Part shown: positions 2,204 to 8,262 of the stretch, piece after piece | Position numbering within the stretch: the stretch's first letter is position 1 | How the letters are laid out: each line of letters starts with the position of its first letter | Source: a virus | Taxonomy: Monodnaviria; Loebvirae; Hofneiviricota; Faserviricetes; Tubulavirales; Inoviridae | Direction: 5' to 3' (one strand) | Virus record (IMG/VR): IMGVR_UViG_2923312938_000004 | Length of the DNA: 37,945 nucleotides | Translations under genes and position numbers: made by a program | Notes under the pieces: model-generated | What the model saw: only the letters and a program-made list of their open reading frames with translations | What the model was told of the DNA's origin: nothing | The model's database searches: none

Positions 2204-2305
2204 TTAACGCCTTCCCGTAATGACTCCGCCAATAAAAGCCAGTGAAAATATCAGCACTGGCACAGCACCAAAGAGAATAAGAACGAAAAATTCAGTCGTG
2301 AGCAT
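2204..2305 (-). CDS. Small hydrophobic virion protein (33 aa), gVII/gIX-like
   Basis: Hand-translated MLTTEFFVLILFGAVPVLIFSLAFIGGVITGRR. Size, single TM and position after the ssDNA-binding gene match the Ff minor coat proteins. Confidence 0.5.
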   Translation of the reverse strand: MLTTEFFVLILFGAVPVLIFSLAFIGGVITGRR

Positions 2306-2315
2306 ATTTCAAAAA

Positions 2316-4191
<1,876 letters not shown>

Positions 4192-4473
4192 ATGAAAAAA
4201 GAAACAAAGCGCGGAGACACAACCGTAAGGATTAACGAAAACAGAAAACTGGAGCTAAAACGAAGAGTGCTGGAAATCGGTAATAAAACAGGTGAGCTAC
4301 TAAAACCATCAGAGATAGTAAACCACTTAATAGACAACTACTTAGATGATGCGGTGAAAGATCTAATAAGCAAAGAAGAACTTAAGAAAAAAAGGCAATG
4401 TGATCCCTTTTCCTGCATTCAGCAGACTACCCGCGAAGGATCGAAAGGATACGGTTTAACTGGAAACCCTTGA
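4192..4473 (+). CDS. Ribbon-helix-helix (RHH) DNA-binding regulator; 93 aa in this copy, 70 aa in copies B-E
   Basis: N-terminus TTVRINENRKLELKRRVLEIGNKTGELLKPSEIVNHLIDNYL fits a beta-strand/helix/helix RHH pattern. Divergent from Rep, like rstR versus rstA in CTXphi. Copy A has an A7 run at 4387-4393 where the other four copies have A8, so the 70-aa form ending KKKKAM is the consensus. Confidence 0.6.
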   Translation: MKKETKRGDTTVRINENRKLELKRRVLEIGNKTGELLKPSEIVNHLIDNYLDDAVKDLISKEELKKKRQCDPFSCIQQTTREGSKGYGLTGNP

Positions 4474-4489
4474 GTTTCCGTTGACTCTA

Positions 4490-4516
4490 CCCCCGTGTTA
4501 CAAGACGGGGGTTTTT
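4490..4516 (+). terminator. Intrinsic terminator downstream of the RHH regulator gene
   Basis: Stem cccccgt / acggggg with an 8-nt loop, followed by ttttt. Confidence 0.6.
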
Positions 4517-4705
4517 CTCCCGGCCTGTAACACATCGCTCTCTGATGTTAATGCAGGCGCTCCGCTCCTCGCAGGTTGTCGTTGTCGGCGTCCTCCTCCC
4601 GTCGTCCTTCTTCGCCTCCAACCTGCTGCGGTGCGGTACGACTGGATTAAGGGCGATTCAACTTCGTTACATGGACATTTAAAAAACAAAAGCATGAGGG
4701 GAAGA

Positions 4706-4879
4706 ATGAACAACTGGAGTGAGATCATATTAGACCTGCTGATGAAGCACATAATAGGTGGCGCTGCGATTGGCGTGGCTATCCTGTTGTTTGCCGGAGT
4801 GATTTTTCCTGTTGCGCTGAAGATAAGGAAGCTCACTGGCAGGAAAAAACAGCGAATAAAACAGAAACTCATCAGTTAA
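4706..4879 (+). CDS. Small membrane protein (57 aa) with polybasic C-terminal tail
   Basis: Strong SD GAGGGGAAG before the ATG at 4706. MNNWSEIILDLLMKHIIGGAAIGVAILLFAGVIFPVALKIRKLTGRKKQRIKQKLIS has one TM helix plus a Lys/Arg-rich tail. Intact in all five copies, whereas the upstream part of the long ORF is frame-broken in copy B. Confidence 0.55.
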   Translation: MNNWSEIILDLLMKHIIGGAAIGVAILLFAGVIFPVALKIRKLTGRKKQRIKQKLIS

Positions 4880-4883
4880 GGCC

Positions 4884-4977
4884 AGTGCGCACAATGACGT
4901 TATGTGTAAAAAGGCCGCTGCGGTGGAGAGTATCGCAGCGGCCTTTTCAACATAACGTGTAACACATTATGCGCACT
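4884..4977. other. Putative attP: inverted pair of dif-like XerC/XerD-arm sequences flanking a hairpin
   Basis: Plus strand 4884-4910 AGTGCGCACAA-TGACG-TTATGTGTAAA. Minus strand of 4945-4977 reads AGTGCGCATAA-TGTGTTACACG-TTATGTTGAAA. Compare E. coli dif GGTGCGCATAA-TGTATA-TTATGTTAAAT (recalled from memory). The two sites form a ~100-bp imperfect palindrome. Confidence 0.6.
4907..4947 (+). terminator. Bidirectional intrinsic terminator hairpin at the centre of the attP palindrome
   Basis: aaaaaa-GGCCGCTGCG-gtggagagtat-CGCAGCGGCC-tttt, 28 nt after the stop of the small membrane-protein gene. Confidence 0.6.
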
Positions 4978-5087
4978 GGCGTTGTGGTAGCTGAATTAAG
5001 GTGTCCGTGTGGGTACACAAACCCGGGAGTAAAAAAAGAAAACGCCTTATAACCTGGGAAAGTTATAAAGCGTCCCGGAAAATCCAG
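4976..5087. repeat. Intergenic direct repeat, copy 1 (~110 bp)
   Basis: ctggcgttgtggtagctgaattaaggtgtccgtgtgggtacac...gaaaacgccttataacctgggaaagttataaagcg...ggaaaatccag. About 88 percent identical by eye to 5286-5392. Confidence 0.7.
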
Positions 5088-5285
5088 AAATGGATACAAT
5101 GAAATATCCGTCTCAGTCAACGTAATTTACGTCTCAATCAACGTGATATACGGCCTTAACTGACATTATGTGTCTACTACCTACTCACCCTCACATAGAT
5201 GAGCAGCAAGACTATAACAAGTAAACATTACGGCGGATAACACCTGCAGACCTCTTGTTGAAAATTCCGGCTCAAAAGACGGCCT

Positions 5286-5392
5286 CTGGCGTTGTGATGG
5301 CTGAATTGAGATGTTCGTGTGGGTACACCGGGAAGTAAAAAAGAAAACGCCCTATAACCTGGGAAAGTTATAAGGCGCACTGGAAAATCCAG
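5286..5392. repeat. Intergenic direct repeat, copy 2 (~107 bp)
   Basis: ctggcgttgtgatggctgaattgagatgttcgtgtgggtacac...gaaaacgccctataacctgggaaagttataaggcg...ggaaaatccag. Partner of 4976-5087; part of a larger diverged ~300-bp duplication. Confidence 0.7.
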
Positions 5393-5775
5393 GTAATTAT
5401 GGGATGTACGCGTCTAAACCAACGTTATGTCCGCCTCAGTATGTGCCAGTCCACTGCCACATAACAGAGTGCGCAAATTGTAACGAGTAAAACATTATCG
5501 CCGATAACACATCAGGACCTCTGTTTGAAAATTCCGGCTCAAAAAGACGGCCTGTCAGTCATCAATTCCATCGAACGGCTTCATCAATGACTGTCCGACT
5601 CCCGTCTTGCGCCGCTCGTCTCGCTGGCTGCCCGCTAAAAGGCGGTCTGGCAGGCGGCGCGTTGCGCTGTTTCCTGCTGCTCTGTCATCTCTCCCCGGTT
5701 TCGGCGGGCTGACATCTGCGTCACATGAAACTTCATCATGCCGCCTTACATGTCCTGACGGACATCATCACACAC

Positions 5776-6996
5776 TCAGACCCGCCGGGCCTGAAGAACG
5801 ACGATGATATCGGTTTTCGCACGTTCATCAGAGTCTGAACCAAACACATCCGGCAGAAATGAAAGCCCTGTCCGCGCCTTTGATGTCTTGTTCTCCGCCA
5901 GTCCGCCCAGCACAATGATATCACCGTCATTCAGACTCACCGACGTGGACACCTCGCGCTTTATCAGCGTTGGCGTGTTATTCACCCCCGTATCCGTTTT
6001 TGCAAAGTTACTCAGCTGCTGAACGATATCCAGACCTATCACATCCTGCGTCACGGTGGGTTTTACCCGAAAAATAGCCCCGCTGCTGCGGTATTCCACG
6101 GACTGCACCGGAACCTTATCCTGCCATGACACTGATGACAGAACCGGCACATCAGACCCCACGCTGAAAACCGCCTCCTTACCGGAGATAACGCGCAGAC
6201 GTGGCGAACTGACCACCTGAAAACGGCTGTCGGTCCTGAATAACTCATACATTGCATCAACAGACCCCGTGCTGAGGCGAATAAAGTTATCCAGCCCCGA
6301 TGCGCTGCTCATGGTGATACTGAAACGACCGGATAAAAGCTCTGCGGCCAGCGCCAGACCTGAACCGTTACGCTCACTGGTCTGGACCTCAAACACATAC
6401 CCGGCAACCGAAACCTCCTGTGCCCTGACGTCAATCTGCGGCAGAAGCTGCCGGACAAGCTCAACTTCCCGGGCCGTTCCCCGGAACACAAACACATCCC
6501 CGGATGCACTGATGAACCGGGTACCACTGCTGACCGCCTGCCATGTCTGCTCACCGTTTGCCCCCTGAACCGGCTGTTGTGCGGCCGGAAGCTGACCCAG
6601 ACCGGAAAGCGCCTGATGCAGATACTCCACTGTCCGGTAACGGGGCGTGTAAACAAGGGATTTCAGCGGCTCCTCTGGTGCGGCAGGTGTATGACTGTAA
6701 ATATAATCAACGCCCTTTTTACGGCTTATCCTGATATTCATATTACCGAGATAACGGGTAATAAATTCCCGTTCATCGATATCCGGTGAAATATGCAGCG
6801 TGACGGCCCGCGGGTCATTGACCAGTTCAGGGGCCAGCATGAACGGTGTTTTCAGGACTTCCGTCCAGAGCAGCGTCACCGCATCAGGCAGGCTCATGCG
6901 GTTAATATCCAGTTCCGTCCCGGCTGAAAACGACGGCAGCGGGAATAACAGCGCCATTGCAGGCAGCACCGGGAGAAGTAATTTTCTGATATTCAT
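5776..6996 (-). CDS. Secretin (gIV-like outer-membrane export channel), 406 aa
   Basis: Signal peptide MNIRKLLLPVLPAMALLFPLPSFSA. C-terminus IIVLGGLAENKTSKARTGLSFLPDVFGSDSDERAKTDIIVVLQARRV resembles the conserved secretin/pIV C-terminal block. Last gene of the operon, after gI, as in Ff phages. Confidence 0.75.
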   Translation of the reverse strand: MNIRKLLLPVLPAMALLFPLPSFSAGTELDINRMSLPDAVTLLWTEVLKTPFMLAPELVNDPRAVTLHISPDIDEREFITRYLGNMNIRISRKKGVDYIYSHTPAAPEEPLKSLVYTPRYRTVEYLHQALSGLGQLPAAQQPVQGANGEQTWQAVSSGTRFISASGDVFVFRGTAREVELVRQLLPQIDVRAQEVSVAGYVFEVQTSERNGSGLALAAELLSGRFSITMSSASGLDNFIRLSTGSVDAMYELFRTDSRFQVVSSPRLRVISGKEAVFSVGSDVPVLSSVSWQDKVPVQSVEYRSSGAIFRVKPTVTQDVIGLDIVQQLSNFAKTDTGVNNTPTLIKREVSTSVSLNDGDIIVLGGLAENKTSKARTGLSFLPDVFGSDSDERAKTDIIVVLQARRV

Positions 6997-7005
6997 ATTC
7001 TGTCC

Positions 7006-8262
7006 CTATGGTGTGGTGAGAGAAACGGACATCCCCCCGGCACCGCTGCCGGACGAACGCGACGGGGAAGGTTCACTGCCTGACCCGCTGTGAAACGTGA
7101 TGTGTTCGCCATCCAGTTCCAGTACAGTAAGCAGCCCTTCATACGGCAGTTCACTGCGCACAAGCCGCGTGACGTTGCTGTTACTGCGCAGAATAAAAAC
7201 CCCCTGCCCGTTACCGTCACGCATATGACCGGAAAGCCGCCAGACACGGGAAAGCGGCAGTTCTGCCGGAGATGCGACCTGTGGTACAGGCGGCGCTTTT
7301 TCAGTGGTGATTACCTGTGGTGGTGCCTGCATGACCGTTGCAGCCGGCTCATCAGGTGTGCCGGAGAAAAAATCCAGCACAAGACGTCCCCAGAACCAGA
7401 AAAACAGGCCACCCACCACAACGGACAACAGTTTTTTACGGCGCGCCTGTTGCTGCTCCTTTCGTTCCTCTGCCGTGAAGGTCTGCAAATCCCCTTTCTC
7501 CTGCCGCTCACGCAGCCGCCGGAACTGCCGGAGGGTTCTGCCGGGCAACAGGGAATACATGGCGCGCATATCACAGACCCGCTGATGCTCACCCGTTCCG
7601 AGCAGTTCCATTCCGTCATCAAATACCATGTTTGTCGGATGGATACCGTAAAAGGACGGCGCATAAAAAACGCGGGATTCATTGGGACGGGAATTCGCCC
7701 GGGGAACACCGATATAAATTTTTGCCGAAATCAGGTGCGGCAGAAGCCCTTTCCGGCTGCCCGTATCGCCAAACTTATCCGGCATGCAGAGTTCCAGAAT
7801 ATCGGACACGACCGGGACACGAATACGATCAAGACGACGGCAGCGGACAATCAGCTCACCCGTGGATTTAAATATTTTGCTGTCAACGGCGGATTCATCC
7901 TGCACCTGAATATAAACATCCCAGCCCAGTTTCCCGGACTGTACAAACCATTTGTAATATTCCAGGTATTCCCGGCCGGAAGATGTGCCGTTAAGCCATG
8001 TTCCGACCTCATCCAGAAATAACGCACCAAACCGCTCCTTCTCATTTTCATCACAACCACGCCCCAGCGCCCAGAAATCTTCAGGACGAGGACGGGCCGG
8101 AAGCACGGTCAACGGATGCGATGAAGCCGGGTCCATTTTTTCAGTATCAAGCGGGTAATTTGCCGCAATTCTGTGTCCGCGACGGTAAAACTGTTTTGCC
8201 ACCATGGAGCAGAACAGCCCCTTCCCGTTGCGCATTTTTCCTGTCACCCAGTAAACAGCCAT
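7006..8262 (-). CDS. gI/Zot-like assembly NTPase (inner-membrane morphogenesis protein), 418 aa
   Basis: N-terminal P-loop-like motif VTGKMRNGKG (compare fd pI GKLGAGKT), a central TM segment (LLSVVVGGLFFWFWGRLVL) and a Pro-rich periplasmic tail. Sits between gVI and gIV. C-terminal length is uncertain: a C6 run at 7025-7030 gives 418 aa, a C5 run (copy C) gives 422 aa. Confidence 0.7.
   Translation of the reverse strand: MAVYWVTGKMRNGKGLFCSMVAKQFYRRGHRIAANYPLDTEKMDPASSHPLTVLPARPRPEDFWALGRGCDENEKERFGALFLDEVGTWLNGTSSGREYLEYYKWFVQSGKLGWDVYIQVQDESAVDSKIFKSTGELIVRCRRLDRIRVPVVSDILELCMPDKFGDTGSRKGLLPHLISAKIYIGVPRANSRPNESRVFYAPSFYGIHPTNMVFDDGMELLGTGEHQRVCDMRAMYSLLPGRTLRQFRRLRERQEKGDLQTFTAEERKEQQQARRKKLLSVVVGGLFFWFWGRLVLDFFSGTPDEPAATVMQAPPQVITTEKAPPVPQVASPAELPLSRVWRLSGHMRDGNGQGVFILRSNSNVTRLVRSELPYEGLLTVLELDGEHITFHSGSGSEPSPSRSSGSGAGGMSVSLTTP

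Follow-up and report, generated by a model that had tools for sequence, protein, structure and literature searches.

The window analysed here, a stretch of 37,945 nucleotides, carries about 4.6 head-to-tail copies of an 8.27-kb Escherichia coli inovirus prophage integrated at dif. Between a 57-aa ORF (4706-4879) and the secretin gene gIV (5776-6996, minus strand) lies a gap of 896 bp in which the ORF list holds no frame of at least 60 aa, in agreement with an initial annotation that had described about 900 bp without a convincing ORF. The setting it had given, a large non-coding inovirus region that follows gIV and abuts attP, is also borne out. At the left of the gap is a CTX-type attP (4878-4983, with no strand assigned), where two inverted dif-like sites give a forked hairpin whose DNA fold, interrupted by a 6-nt bulge, reaches -43.7 kcal/mol (z = -11.9), and which shares the first 8 nt of the repeated region at 4976-5553. 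At the other end, directly after the gIV stop on the minus strand and outside 4976-5553, is a GC-rich segment with hairpins (5554-5775), hereafter the 'post' region. In E24377A, which carries a single prophage, the junctions map to attP 4878-4983 and the left end restores a 27/28 dif site, with the units described below adjoining the XerC arm of the rebuilt dif. Besides E24377A, where the units occupy NC_009801.1 1701181-1701758, further isolates of human, bovine and porcine origin carry this prophage family.

When the region was compared at the DNA level with 50,697 phage records, nothing matched; the whole phage matched only rstR-like genes of CTXphi-type vibriophages and, over short stretches, hypothetical-protein genes of other Vibrio phages. 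The gIV protein, searched against one genome per species, found a single weak relative, which made a cross-genus comparison impossible. Literature and phage-database searches did not bring up this E. coli family of dif-integrating filamentous prophages, least of all its non-coding DNA, and a full-text literature search with the terminator and motif sequences retrieved no paper.

Architecture of the tandem units

The region 4976-5553 consists of two tandem, diverged copies of one unit (4976-5285 and 5286-5553) with an identity of 73-83%. All direct repeats reported in the initial annotation are present, far beyond chance, and are better described as one tandem duplication, with matching pairs at 4976-5018 and 5286-5328 (88%), 5023-5087 and 5328-5392 (88%), and 5223-5277 and 5490-5544 (84%). 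In a gapped alignment, unit 1 (310 nt) and unit 2 (268 nt) run collinear from end to end at a mean column identity of 83%, with a 34-nt block exclusive to unit 1. The four copies of the region in the window differ by only one 1-nt indel.

Each unit divides into a cassette core and a tail, both on the minus strand. The core of cassette 1 (u1 type, 258 nt, 5028-5285) extends from an A-block through the terminator T-run, and that of cassette 2 (u2 type, 221 nt) occupies 5333-5553; both are full-length matches to the unit HMM, and all 56 copies found span the whole model (positions 1-221). The cassette is a gene-less element of about 220-260 bp between the secretin gene and the dif-type integration site of E. 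coli filamentous prophages; more generally, cassettes lie between the morphogenesis genes and attP. Tail 1 (4976-5027), the post-terminator segment before attP, is repeated at 5286-5332, and its final GCCAG (5 nt) serves as the base of the attP stem; a relative without units (in L006) has the same tail before attP. Tail 2 (5286-5332) is a copy of tail 1 and is followed by cassette 1, not attP. Small ORFs or peptides within the units were considered and rejected, since a 1-nt indel between unit types shifts every candidate frame.

The minus strand carries two hairpins followed by T-runs, one per cassette. In cassette 1 (5031-5074) the hairpin spans 5042-5074 (5076-5039 in the terminator scan) and is followed by a T-run at 5031-5042; in cassette 2 (5337-5378) the hairpin spans 5347-5378 and the T-run 5337-5347, and this site is the first terminator-like one downstream of gIV in the scan. 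Both combine a stem-loop with a U-run, and the stem is kept in relatives, so that from sequence they qualify as predicted intrinsic (Rho-independent) terminators. Among 31 variants 98.7% of stem positions pair; the changes are wobbles, with G:C or A:U becoming G:U, and one compensatory pair altered on both sides, and the T-run stays essentially unchanged. The wobbles are specific to the minus strand, as the plus strand would carry A:C mismatches, and the joint pairing of the terminator and SL2 falls from 97.9% to 39-61% when the 3' partners are slid by 1-3 columns.

A second conserved stem-loop, SL1 (5435-5469, minus strand), would form the 5' end of the RNA predicted for cassette 2. Its fold is strand specific (z = -3.7 to -3.9 on the minus strand versus -1.1 to -1.6 on the plus strand), and its positions are 93.9% paired, with one G:C to A:U swap through G:U intermediates and all one-sided changes leading to G:U. 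The covariation events in the terminator and SL1 are few and, as the sequences are related, not independent. Whole-unit folds show the same strand preference (z = -2.8 and -2.3 on the minus strand versus -0.5 and -1.8 on the plus strand); prominent structure is confined to the terminator hairpins and to SL1 in unit 2, and the middle of unit 1 has a z near 0. A hairpin predicted for the A-block in the window sequence was discarded as not conserved in relatives. The predicted RNAs would be about 130 nt (unit 2) and 175 nt (unit 1) long, with a terminator about 60 nt before attP, and would fold into a 5' stem-loop, an A/U-rich linker with the motif ACGUUGAYUGAGACG, a small hairpin and the terminator (z = -2.3 to -3.3). 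Searching the units against Rfam 15 gave nothing at gathering thresholds and, under relaxed settings, one chance-level match (GlmZ, 16 bits versus a gathering threshold of 60, E = 0.38). In a duplex scan covering 11 phage start regions, the predicted RNAs found no convincing target, and z never fell below -1.7.

The tandem motifs that the initial annotation had placed at 5117-5153 exist but lie slightly further left, as two copies of CGTCTCARTCAACGT with a 21-bp period at 5109-5123 and 5130-5144 (no strand assigned; the minus strand reads ACGTTGAYTGAGACG). With a degenerate third copy at 5411-5425, the window contains 12 matches (3 in each of the four region copies) versus 0.13 expected from shuffles. 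Cassettes of relatives carry 0-2 copies, and no Rep family is linked to the motif.

Promoter-like blocks and similarity to attP

Upstream of each predicted RNA is a promoter-like element on the minus strand. That of cassette 1 (5211-5240) reads TTATCC, 18 nt, (TGT)TATAGT with a PWM score of 8.8, a value of at least which is reached by 10 site and spacer combinations on both phage strands; that of cassette 2 (5477-5507) reads TTATCG, 19 nt, TACAAT and scores 6.1-7.1. A scan for consensus promoters found none, and by eye no motif for sigma-E, sigma-28, sigma-54, LexA, DnaA, IHF, ArgR, ArcA, PhoP or OmpR fitted in both sequence and spacing. Conservation varies along the unit: the promoter-like block has 46% invariant columns versus 25% elsewhere (p = 0.02), and the middle has only 5% (p = 0.0002). 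Within the -10-like hexamer of the 31 variants, the T at -12 is at least 90% conserved and the A at -11 and T at -7 are invariant, while the middle three positions vary.

Both elements overlap pieces of attP. In cassette 1 the overlap is with a relic of an attP-arm core (5214-5230), and in cassette 2 with the attP-arm relic TAATGTTTTACTCGTTAC (5480-5497), whose match to attP 4951-4969 is equalled in 0-1 of 1,000 dinucleotide shuffles and not once among 60 control pieces. The best-conserved block of the unit thus copies the attP crossover core, namely the 11-nt central region together with the adjoining XerC-arm end and XerD-arm start, and for this reason the cassettes look attP-derived. Similar pieces within the units include TAATGTTTTACTCGTTA, compared with attP 4951-4969, ACACATAATGTCA, compared with ACACATAACGTCA, as well as TTTTCAACA and the 12-nt TCAGTTAAGGCC. 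For the conserved 'spacer' of the promoter-like block, descent from attP is an equally good explanation. As for a functional second attP, the units contain one arm-core relic and scattered arm fragments, the outer arm positions for XerC/XerD binding were not found to be conserved, and an attP-like forked hairpin appears in neither of the predicted minimum-energy folds. A long attP-like hairpin joining the relic arm to the motif region was checked by hand and rejected, as its pairing fails.

Distribution among relatives and competing readings

Relatives carry 0, 1, 2 or 3 cassettes. These accompany three unrelated initiators: Rep_trans, gpII-like proteins (three subtypes, 47-57% identical) and a P2-gpA-like endonuclease. 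One phage with a gpII-like initiator (PF05155/PF05144) in place of Rep_trans (PF02486) has unit 1 at 100% identity, another with a gpII-type Rep (L006) has unit 2 at 100% identity, and the phage with the P2-gpA-like endonuclease has three units. The Rep-specific module that is swapped between relatives corresponds to 2294-4553, with the units outside it. The units are also dispensable: L006 3778-11888 is an intact phage in tandem copies that has no unit and integrates at the same site, although its gIV protein (WP_001026226.1) is identical and its Zot 99% identical.

All phage-borne cassettes have one orientation relative to the phage genes, an arrangement that would also suit elements acting in cis on single-stranded DNA. 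Large plasmids carry solitary copies that are about 75% identical and still full length, set among IS remnants, lpxR and phage fragments. Since diverged copies lie on such plasmids, we considered a link to the Frpo/ssi-type single-strand promoters of conjugative plasmids and rejected it, as the plasmid copies are outside the leading regions. Membership of an ISNCY element was also discarded, as one solitary copy begins 6 bp past the IS homology and the arrangement differs in another plasmid.

The units at 4976-5553 are most likely small transcription units with a terminator, and not a replication origin or packaging signal. As a tentative but leading reading, to which we assign slightly less than an even chance, each unit would be an accessory promoter-to-terminator cassette for a non-coding RNA, and would also close the phage operon ahead of attP/dif. 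On the coding strand of the phage (minus in the window), a weak sigma-70-type promoter, its -10 hexamer placed on the former XerD-arm start of an attP arm, would precede an untranslated structured RNA and a strong intrinsic terminator. Such cassettes would be moron-like modules made from old attP sequence and stacked to 0-3 copies by recombination between co-resident tandem prophages, and the two copies here would represent distinct alleles, not a local duplication with later divergence. They would keep transcription of the long Rep-to-gIV operon from running across attP/dif into the neighbouring prophage or host DNA, and would most likely also release a small non-coding RNA; promoter activity, build-up of the RNA and its action in trans are what this reading infers. 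A degenerate attP-proximal module and an sRNA locus, both offered as fallbacks in the initial annotation, suit the region better than its main proposal, considering the copied attP core and the anatomy of a short transcription unit.

Alternatively, the units may be decaying attP relics, duplicated among tandem prophages, in which only the terminator of the gIV operon works and there is neither a separate RNA nor any other function. This is unlikely but retains a sizeable chance, being consistent with the several unit blocks that copy attP pieces, the two intact attP hairpins found in tandem at the same place in one relative, the unremarkable promoter score and the dispensability of the units. 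Decay, however, sits poorly with the full length of every copy, even solitary ones at 65-76% identity, with a promoter-like block that is significantly better conserved than the rest and has the pattern of a -10 element inside it, and with SL1, where pairing has been kept through wobbles and one compensatory change.

It is improbable that the units are redundant minus-strand (complementary-strand) origins, in which packaged-strand hairpins would draw in RNA polymerase or primase of the host to prime second-strand synthesis. Their position after gIV resembles that in the Ff intergenic region, their structure is specific to the packaged-sense strand, their orientation to the phage genes is fixed in all phage copies, and independence from Rep would be expected because such origins depend on the host. 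The intact relative with the same secretin, however, has no unit; beyond the terminator and SL1 the units are unstructured; the essentially invariant T-run is a feature of transcription that a DNA hairpin does not need; and solitary plasmid copies persist outside any phage. The minus-strand origin that the initial annotation had placed in the units gains no positive support. From its conservation, the 'post' region appears to be a better candidate than the units for a minus-strand origin or a packaging signal: it is 88-100% identical in all relatives examined, including the one without units, a non-dif inovirus has it at 84% identity immediately behind an unrelated gIV, and the first hairpin past the stop codon keeps its pairing through one compensatory change. 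A RefSeq ORF of 41 aa within it (5587-5712) has a start and a C-terminal part that are not conserved in a relative.

Binding of XerC/XerD or accessory proteins to the units, which would tune integration, tandem-array stability or excision in the manner of cer or psi, is quite improbable. The best-conserved block does copy the attP core, the units abut the rebuilt dif on its XerC side, and the motif repeats are in helical phase. Yet the outer arm positions are not conserved, the attP-like hairpin has no partner arm, a search for similarity to cer/psi-type plasmids found none, a relative integrates at the same site without units, and the conserved terminator would be left unexplained. A plus-strand origin with Rep-bound iterons and/or a packaging signal, the main proposal of the initial annotation, is favoured by the large non-coding region after gIV with its hairpins and direct repeats 21 bp apart, but is contradicted and highly improbable: identical units accompany Rep_trans and gpII-like initiators, and three units a P2-gpA-like endonuclease, without co-varying with initiator family, the Rep-linked swapped module 2294-4553 excludes them, and they cannot be the signal for that assembly machinery because a phage with the same secretin and near-identical Zot lacks them.

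Comparison with known systems and biological meaning

In the Ff phages (f1/M13), the intergenic region after gene IV contains the packaging hairpin, the minus origin and the plus origin. Here too, gene IV is followed directly by non-coding DNA that is predicted to form hairpins on the packaged strand, but the units differ in that they are not linked to the initiator, are not universal among phages with shared assembly genes and end in terminator-type T-runs. The analogy fits the neighbouring 5554-5775 better.

CTXphi of Vibrio cholerae shares with this phage a forked-hairpin attP of two inverted dif-like sites, a Rep_trans initiator and tandem prophages at dif, and the gene for an RstR-like repressor is about 70% identical in DNA over 172 nt. 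In CTXphi the ctxAB genes lie between the morphogenesis genes and attP, a slot that holds accessory genes in other inoviruses as well, and the cassettes occupy its equivalent here. The UPphi paper likewise describes accessory genes between the morphogenesis genes and attP. Unlike CTXphi, this phage has its own secretin gene, and the slot holds non-coding cassettes instead of toxin genes. The plus origin of CTXphi is a 167-bp inverted-repeat region around the RstA cleavage site (PMC4439123); by analogy, the Rep-specific module 2294-4553, and not the units, would be the expected place for the plus origin here.

As short, mobile, promoter-to-terminator non-coding units whose copy number and sequence differ between strains, the cassettes also resemble the prophage small RNA morons of pathogenic E. 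coli and Salmonella (for example Pas sRNAs and IsrK). Those RNAs are carried by lambdoid or Gifsy-type prophages and were detected experimentally, whereas the cassette is borne by an inovirus, is predicted and has no Rfam family.

A further resemblance is to ColE1 cer, where a small untranslated RNA gene (Rcd, transcribed from Pcer) sits inside XerCD-site sequence, much as the -10-like hexamer here sits in a relic of the attP core. The differences are that this is a phage element and not a plasmid, that it has no sequence similarity to cer-type plasmids and that the relic lacks the outer arm positions, so we take the resemblance as a lead rather than as membership. There is a low probability of a phage counterpart of Rcd/Pcer, in which the cassettes would be regulatory RNA genes that arose from a Xer site, and XerC/XerD or the state of the adjacent attP/dif would still influence the relic-core promoter. 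If so, RNA output would report prophage copy number or the tandem or replicative state, the RNA would alter host physiology in enterotoxigenic and other E. coli, and the cassettes would be the first conversion-type small RNA family on a filamentous phage, located in the slot that holds the cholera toxin genes in CTXphi.

The analysis separates three elements at this locus: the attP hairpin (4878-4983), a universal post-gIV element (5554-5775) and a dispensable, stackable cassette (4976-5553). Whether or not the cassettes yield an RNA, this should help phage engineers and annotators to avoid misplacing the origin. If they do not, the region would be an ordinary pair of operon terminators on attP debris; if they do, an inovirus would be seen to carry a lysogenic-conversion RNA, and a Xer site to have evolved into a gene.

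Tandem units between gIV and attP

The window (1-37945) consists of about 4.6 head-to-tail copies of one element with a period of 8,260-8,270 bp. The copies are identical apart from a few 1-nt indels and single-base substitutions; the region under study is identical in three copies and carries one indel in the fourth. The tandem array may be genuine, like those seen at dif in several complete genomes, or may in part reflect long-read indel noise. The repeated element is an E. coli filamentous prophage, encoding on the minus strand a Rep_trans initiator (PF02486; 2661-3887), a g3-like gene among the coat genes (363-1691), the secretin gIV (5776-6996) and Zot/gI (7006-8262), and on the plus strand an RstR-like gene (4189-4473; a 172-nt stretch is ~70% identical to CTXphi rstR DNA) and a 57-aa ORF (4706-4879). 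A 721-nt query covering attP, both repeat units described below and the start of the post-gIV region matched 71 of 5,426 complete E. coli genomes, with 100% identity in strain E24377A and several human and bovine isolates. In the matching genomes the prophage adjoins hipBA, often as tandem arrays.

Two inverted dif-like sites form attP (4878-4983), whose predicted structure is a forked hairpin containing a 6-nt bulge (-43.7 kcal/mol, z = -11.9), the same attP type as that of CTXphi. The single prophage of E24377A retains the whole attP hairpin at its right end, beside hipA, while at its left end dif is rebuilt (27/28 match) and abuts the sequence that opens the region under study. These junctions establish the window minus strand as the phage sense strand and place the region between gIV and attP. 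CTXphi carries ctxAB in the slot between morphogenesis genes and attP. Accessory genes of integrating inoviruses occupy this slot (UPphi paper).

A repeat search recovered all of the repeats reported in the initial annotation, and the 896-bp gap contains no ORF of at least 60 aa. Gapped alignment revealed the repeats to be parts of one tandem duplication, comprising unit 1 (4976-5285) and unit 2 (5286-5553), with a mean column identity of 83% and a 34-nt block present in unit 1 only. The short motif CGTCTCARTCAACGT occurs at 5109-5123 and 5130-5144, with a degenerate copy at 5411-5425; it has 12 matches in the window versus 0.13 expected, and was not found elsewhere in the phage outside 4976-5553. 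The feature is real and now has defined boundaries.

An HMM of the unit core, spanning AGGCCGTCTTTTTGAGCC to the end of a T-run, identified 56 copies, of which 34 differ from one another, across E. coli chromosomes, plasmids, metagenome contigs and a single IMG/VR genome. Matches started within the first four model positions in all copies but one, which was cut at a contig end, and all reached position 214 or beyond, so every copy is essentially full length. Identity among unit lineages ranged from 65 to 90%. Each core is followed by a 45-52-nt tail; because a relative without units has this tail ahead of attP, the tail belongs with attP.

Units and replication modules

The phage family is mosaic: one morphogenesis block, the 57-aa ORF and attP are joined to one of three unrelated replication modules. 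These are Rep_trans plus an RstR-like gene; a gpII-like initiator (PF05155/PF05144; three subtypes 47-57% identical) plus an HTH repressor; and a replication endonuclease of 660 aa, with an annotation like that of P2 gpA, plus a TolA-C-terminal-domain protein. Adjacent prophages in one array are often of different replication types. Comparison of window 2294-4553 with loci L005, L006, L007, L008 and L082 defined this interval as the segment swapped along with the initiator, and the units lie outside it. Unit 1 is 100% identical in one gpII-type phage (L008) and unit 2 in another (L006), and an endonuclease-type phage (L082) carries three units. No unit at all is present in one relative whose gIV protein is identical and whose genes are intact; this phage occurs in two or more full copies in tandem, with one more truncated by the edge of the locus. 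Its 531-bp gap contains the region directly after gIV, a further attP hairpin that is also intact, the tail and attP.

The initial annotation had suggested that the region, with its iteron-like repeats, is where plus- and minus-strand origins and a packaging signal would lie. A Rep-specific origin must follow its Rep, whereas the same units occur with different Reps; a packaging signal must be present in a relative with the same assembly proteins, and the units are missing from one. The plus-origin/iteron and packaging interpretation of the units is therefore rejected. By analogy with CTXphi, whose plus origin is 167 bp (PMC4439123), the putative plus origin should instead be sought within the Rep-linked module, perhaps near 4474-4553. 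Within this module, a GC-rich plus-strand hairpin with a T-run just past the RstR-like gene (4489-4512) is probably the rstR terminator; it falls close to the expected position of a CTXphi-like plus origin.

Judged on sequence conservation, a better candidate than the units for the packaging signal and/or minus origin is the 222 bp directly 3' of the gIV stop codon (5554-5775), which is GC-rich with conserved hairpins. This post-gIV region is 88-100% identical in all relatives examined, including the unit-less one, and a version with 84% identity directly follows the unrelated gIV of another E. coli inovirus (L101 9001-9197), inserted near ybiB beside an IS110-family transposase gene. Its first hairpin keeps its pairing in the ybiB phage through one compensatory change (U:A to C:G). 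A 41-aa ORF annotated there (5587-5712) showed no conservation as a protein.

Unit anatomy and attP ancestry

A terminator scan found that both units close with a hairpin and T-run on the sense strand. Across 31 variants the terminator stem is 98.7% paired, with variation almost entirely from G:C or A:U to G:U plus one compensatory pair; sliding the partners reduced pairing, for this stem and a small hairpin just upstream (CTGG/CCRG) combined, from 97.9% to 39-61%. Read from the opposite strand, such wobbles would become A:C mismatches, so selection acts on the sense-strand structure, and the essentially invariant T-run in the variants examined points to transcription termination over a DNA hairpin. 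Unit 2 also has a 5' stem-loop (SL1; 5435-5469), structured on the minus strand only, which is 93.9% paired in relatives and includes one G:C to A:U swap via G:U. Conservation is lowest in the unit middle (5% invariant columns, p = 0.0002), which bears large indels and 0-2 copies of the CGTCTCARTCAACGT motif.

Best conserved is a promoter-like block (alignment columns 44-80; 46% invariant versus 25% elsewhere, p = 0.02). It includes a -10-like hexamer (TATAGT, TACAAT or TATGAT) with -11 A and -7 T invariant, -12 T nearly invariant and three variable middle positions; TTATCN sits 18-19 nt upstream. Promoter PWM scores are moderate (8.8 and 6-7), with ten site/spacer combinations at least equal elsewhere in the phage. 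RNAs predicted from these starts would span ~130 nt (unit 2) and ~175 nt (unit 1), folding into a stem-loop, A/U-rich linker, hairpin and terminator (z = -2.3 to -3.3). Indels break candidate small ORFs, leaving none intact across unit types; an Rfam search of the units gave no family match, and a literature search found no paper on these sequences.

The conserved block TAATGTTTTACTCGTTA(C/T) resembles the crossover core of the same-strand attP arm, TAATGTGTTACACGTTATG (4951-4969; XerC-arm end, 11-nt central region and XerD-arm start), with 17/19 identity, a score equalled by 0-1 of 1,000 dinucleotide shuffles and by 0 of 60 control pieces of phage. Unit 1 contains further attP-like pieces, namely ACACATAATGTCA (compare attP ACACATAACGTCA), TTTTCAACA and the 12-mer TCAGTTAAGGCC, an inverted copy of which flanks attP. 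On this resemblance, the units look like descendants of old attP regions; an attP-like forked hairpin was not seen in their predicted folds. Because u1- and u2-type units combine differently in different phages, the window pair would more likely reflect two alleles, stacked when co-resident tandem prophages recombined, than a diverged local duplication.

The 12-mer forms a perfect inverted repeat, TCAGTTAAGGCC / GGCCTTAACTGA (4872-4883 and 5152-5163), joining the sequence around the 57-aa ORF stop codon, on the attP edge, to the unit-1-specific insertion; ~0.09 such pairs are expected by chance in the 1.7-kb region. In the unit-less relative with the identical secretin (L006 3778-4308; NZ_AP045072.1), two intact attP hairpins, 75% alike, stand in tandem and the cassette (unit core) is absent. 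Two integration sites on one phage are unusual, and this may be a precursor state of the cassettes, an earlier stage of unit evolution.

Solitary full-length cassettes occur on ~100-160-kb E. coli plasmids (L010 6003-6211, L011 and L012 3839-4050), and E. albertii plasmids were also matched. These are ~75% identical to phage cassettes, have other phage scraps nearby and lie between an ISNCY transposase remnant and lpxR; here the short motif yields a promoter-like site better than any other (TTGATT, 18 nt, TATATT). Plasmid NZ_CP078136.1 (L003 5594-7385) carries a gene-less mini-element composed of half an attP, one cassette, part of the post-gIV region, zot scraps, the equivalent of window 4579-4647, the 57-aa ORF and an entire attP, and another, partial copy adjoins it; metagenome contigs L047 and L066 share this arrangement. 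Either a miniphage or satellite has integrated into the plasmid, or the element is a deletion remnant.

A proposed transcription cassette beside attP

We propose that each unit is an accessory gene-less transcription cassette with a weak promoter, a short structured RNA and a strong terminator, the promoter -10 having possibly arisen where the XerD arm began in a relic attP arm. The terminator is well supported; we infer the promoter and any action in trans. The main rival, a terminator on attP debris, draws strength from the fact that descent from attP alone could also explain the conserved promoter-like block. A Xer-related DNA-binding sequence is possible, given the relic core and the position of the units on the XerC side of dif, but outer arm positions are unconserved. 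A minus-strand origin is disfavoured by the unit-less relative, the scarcity of structure apart from the terminator and SL1, and the T-run.

For the speculative part of the cassette reading, the closest functional analogy is ColE1, in which the promoter of the small RNA Rcd lies within the cer Xer site (PMC4393325); cer and the units share no sequence similarity, making this an analogy only. The cassettes would halt the Rep-to-gIV operon ~60 nt ahead of attP/dif and probably also yield a small RNA. They are a previously undescribed family of a known kind, the prophage non-coding cassette with a terminator.
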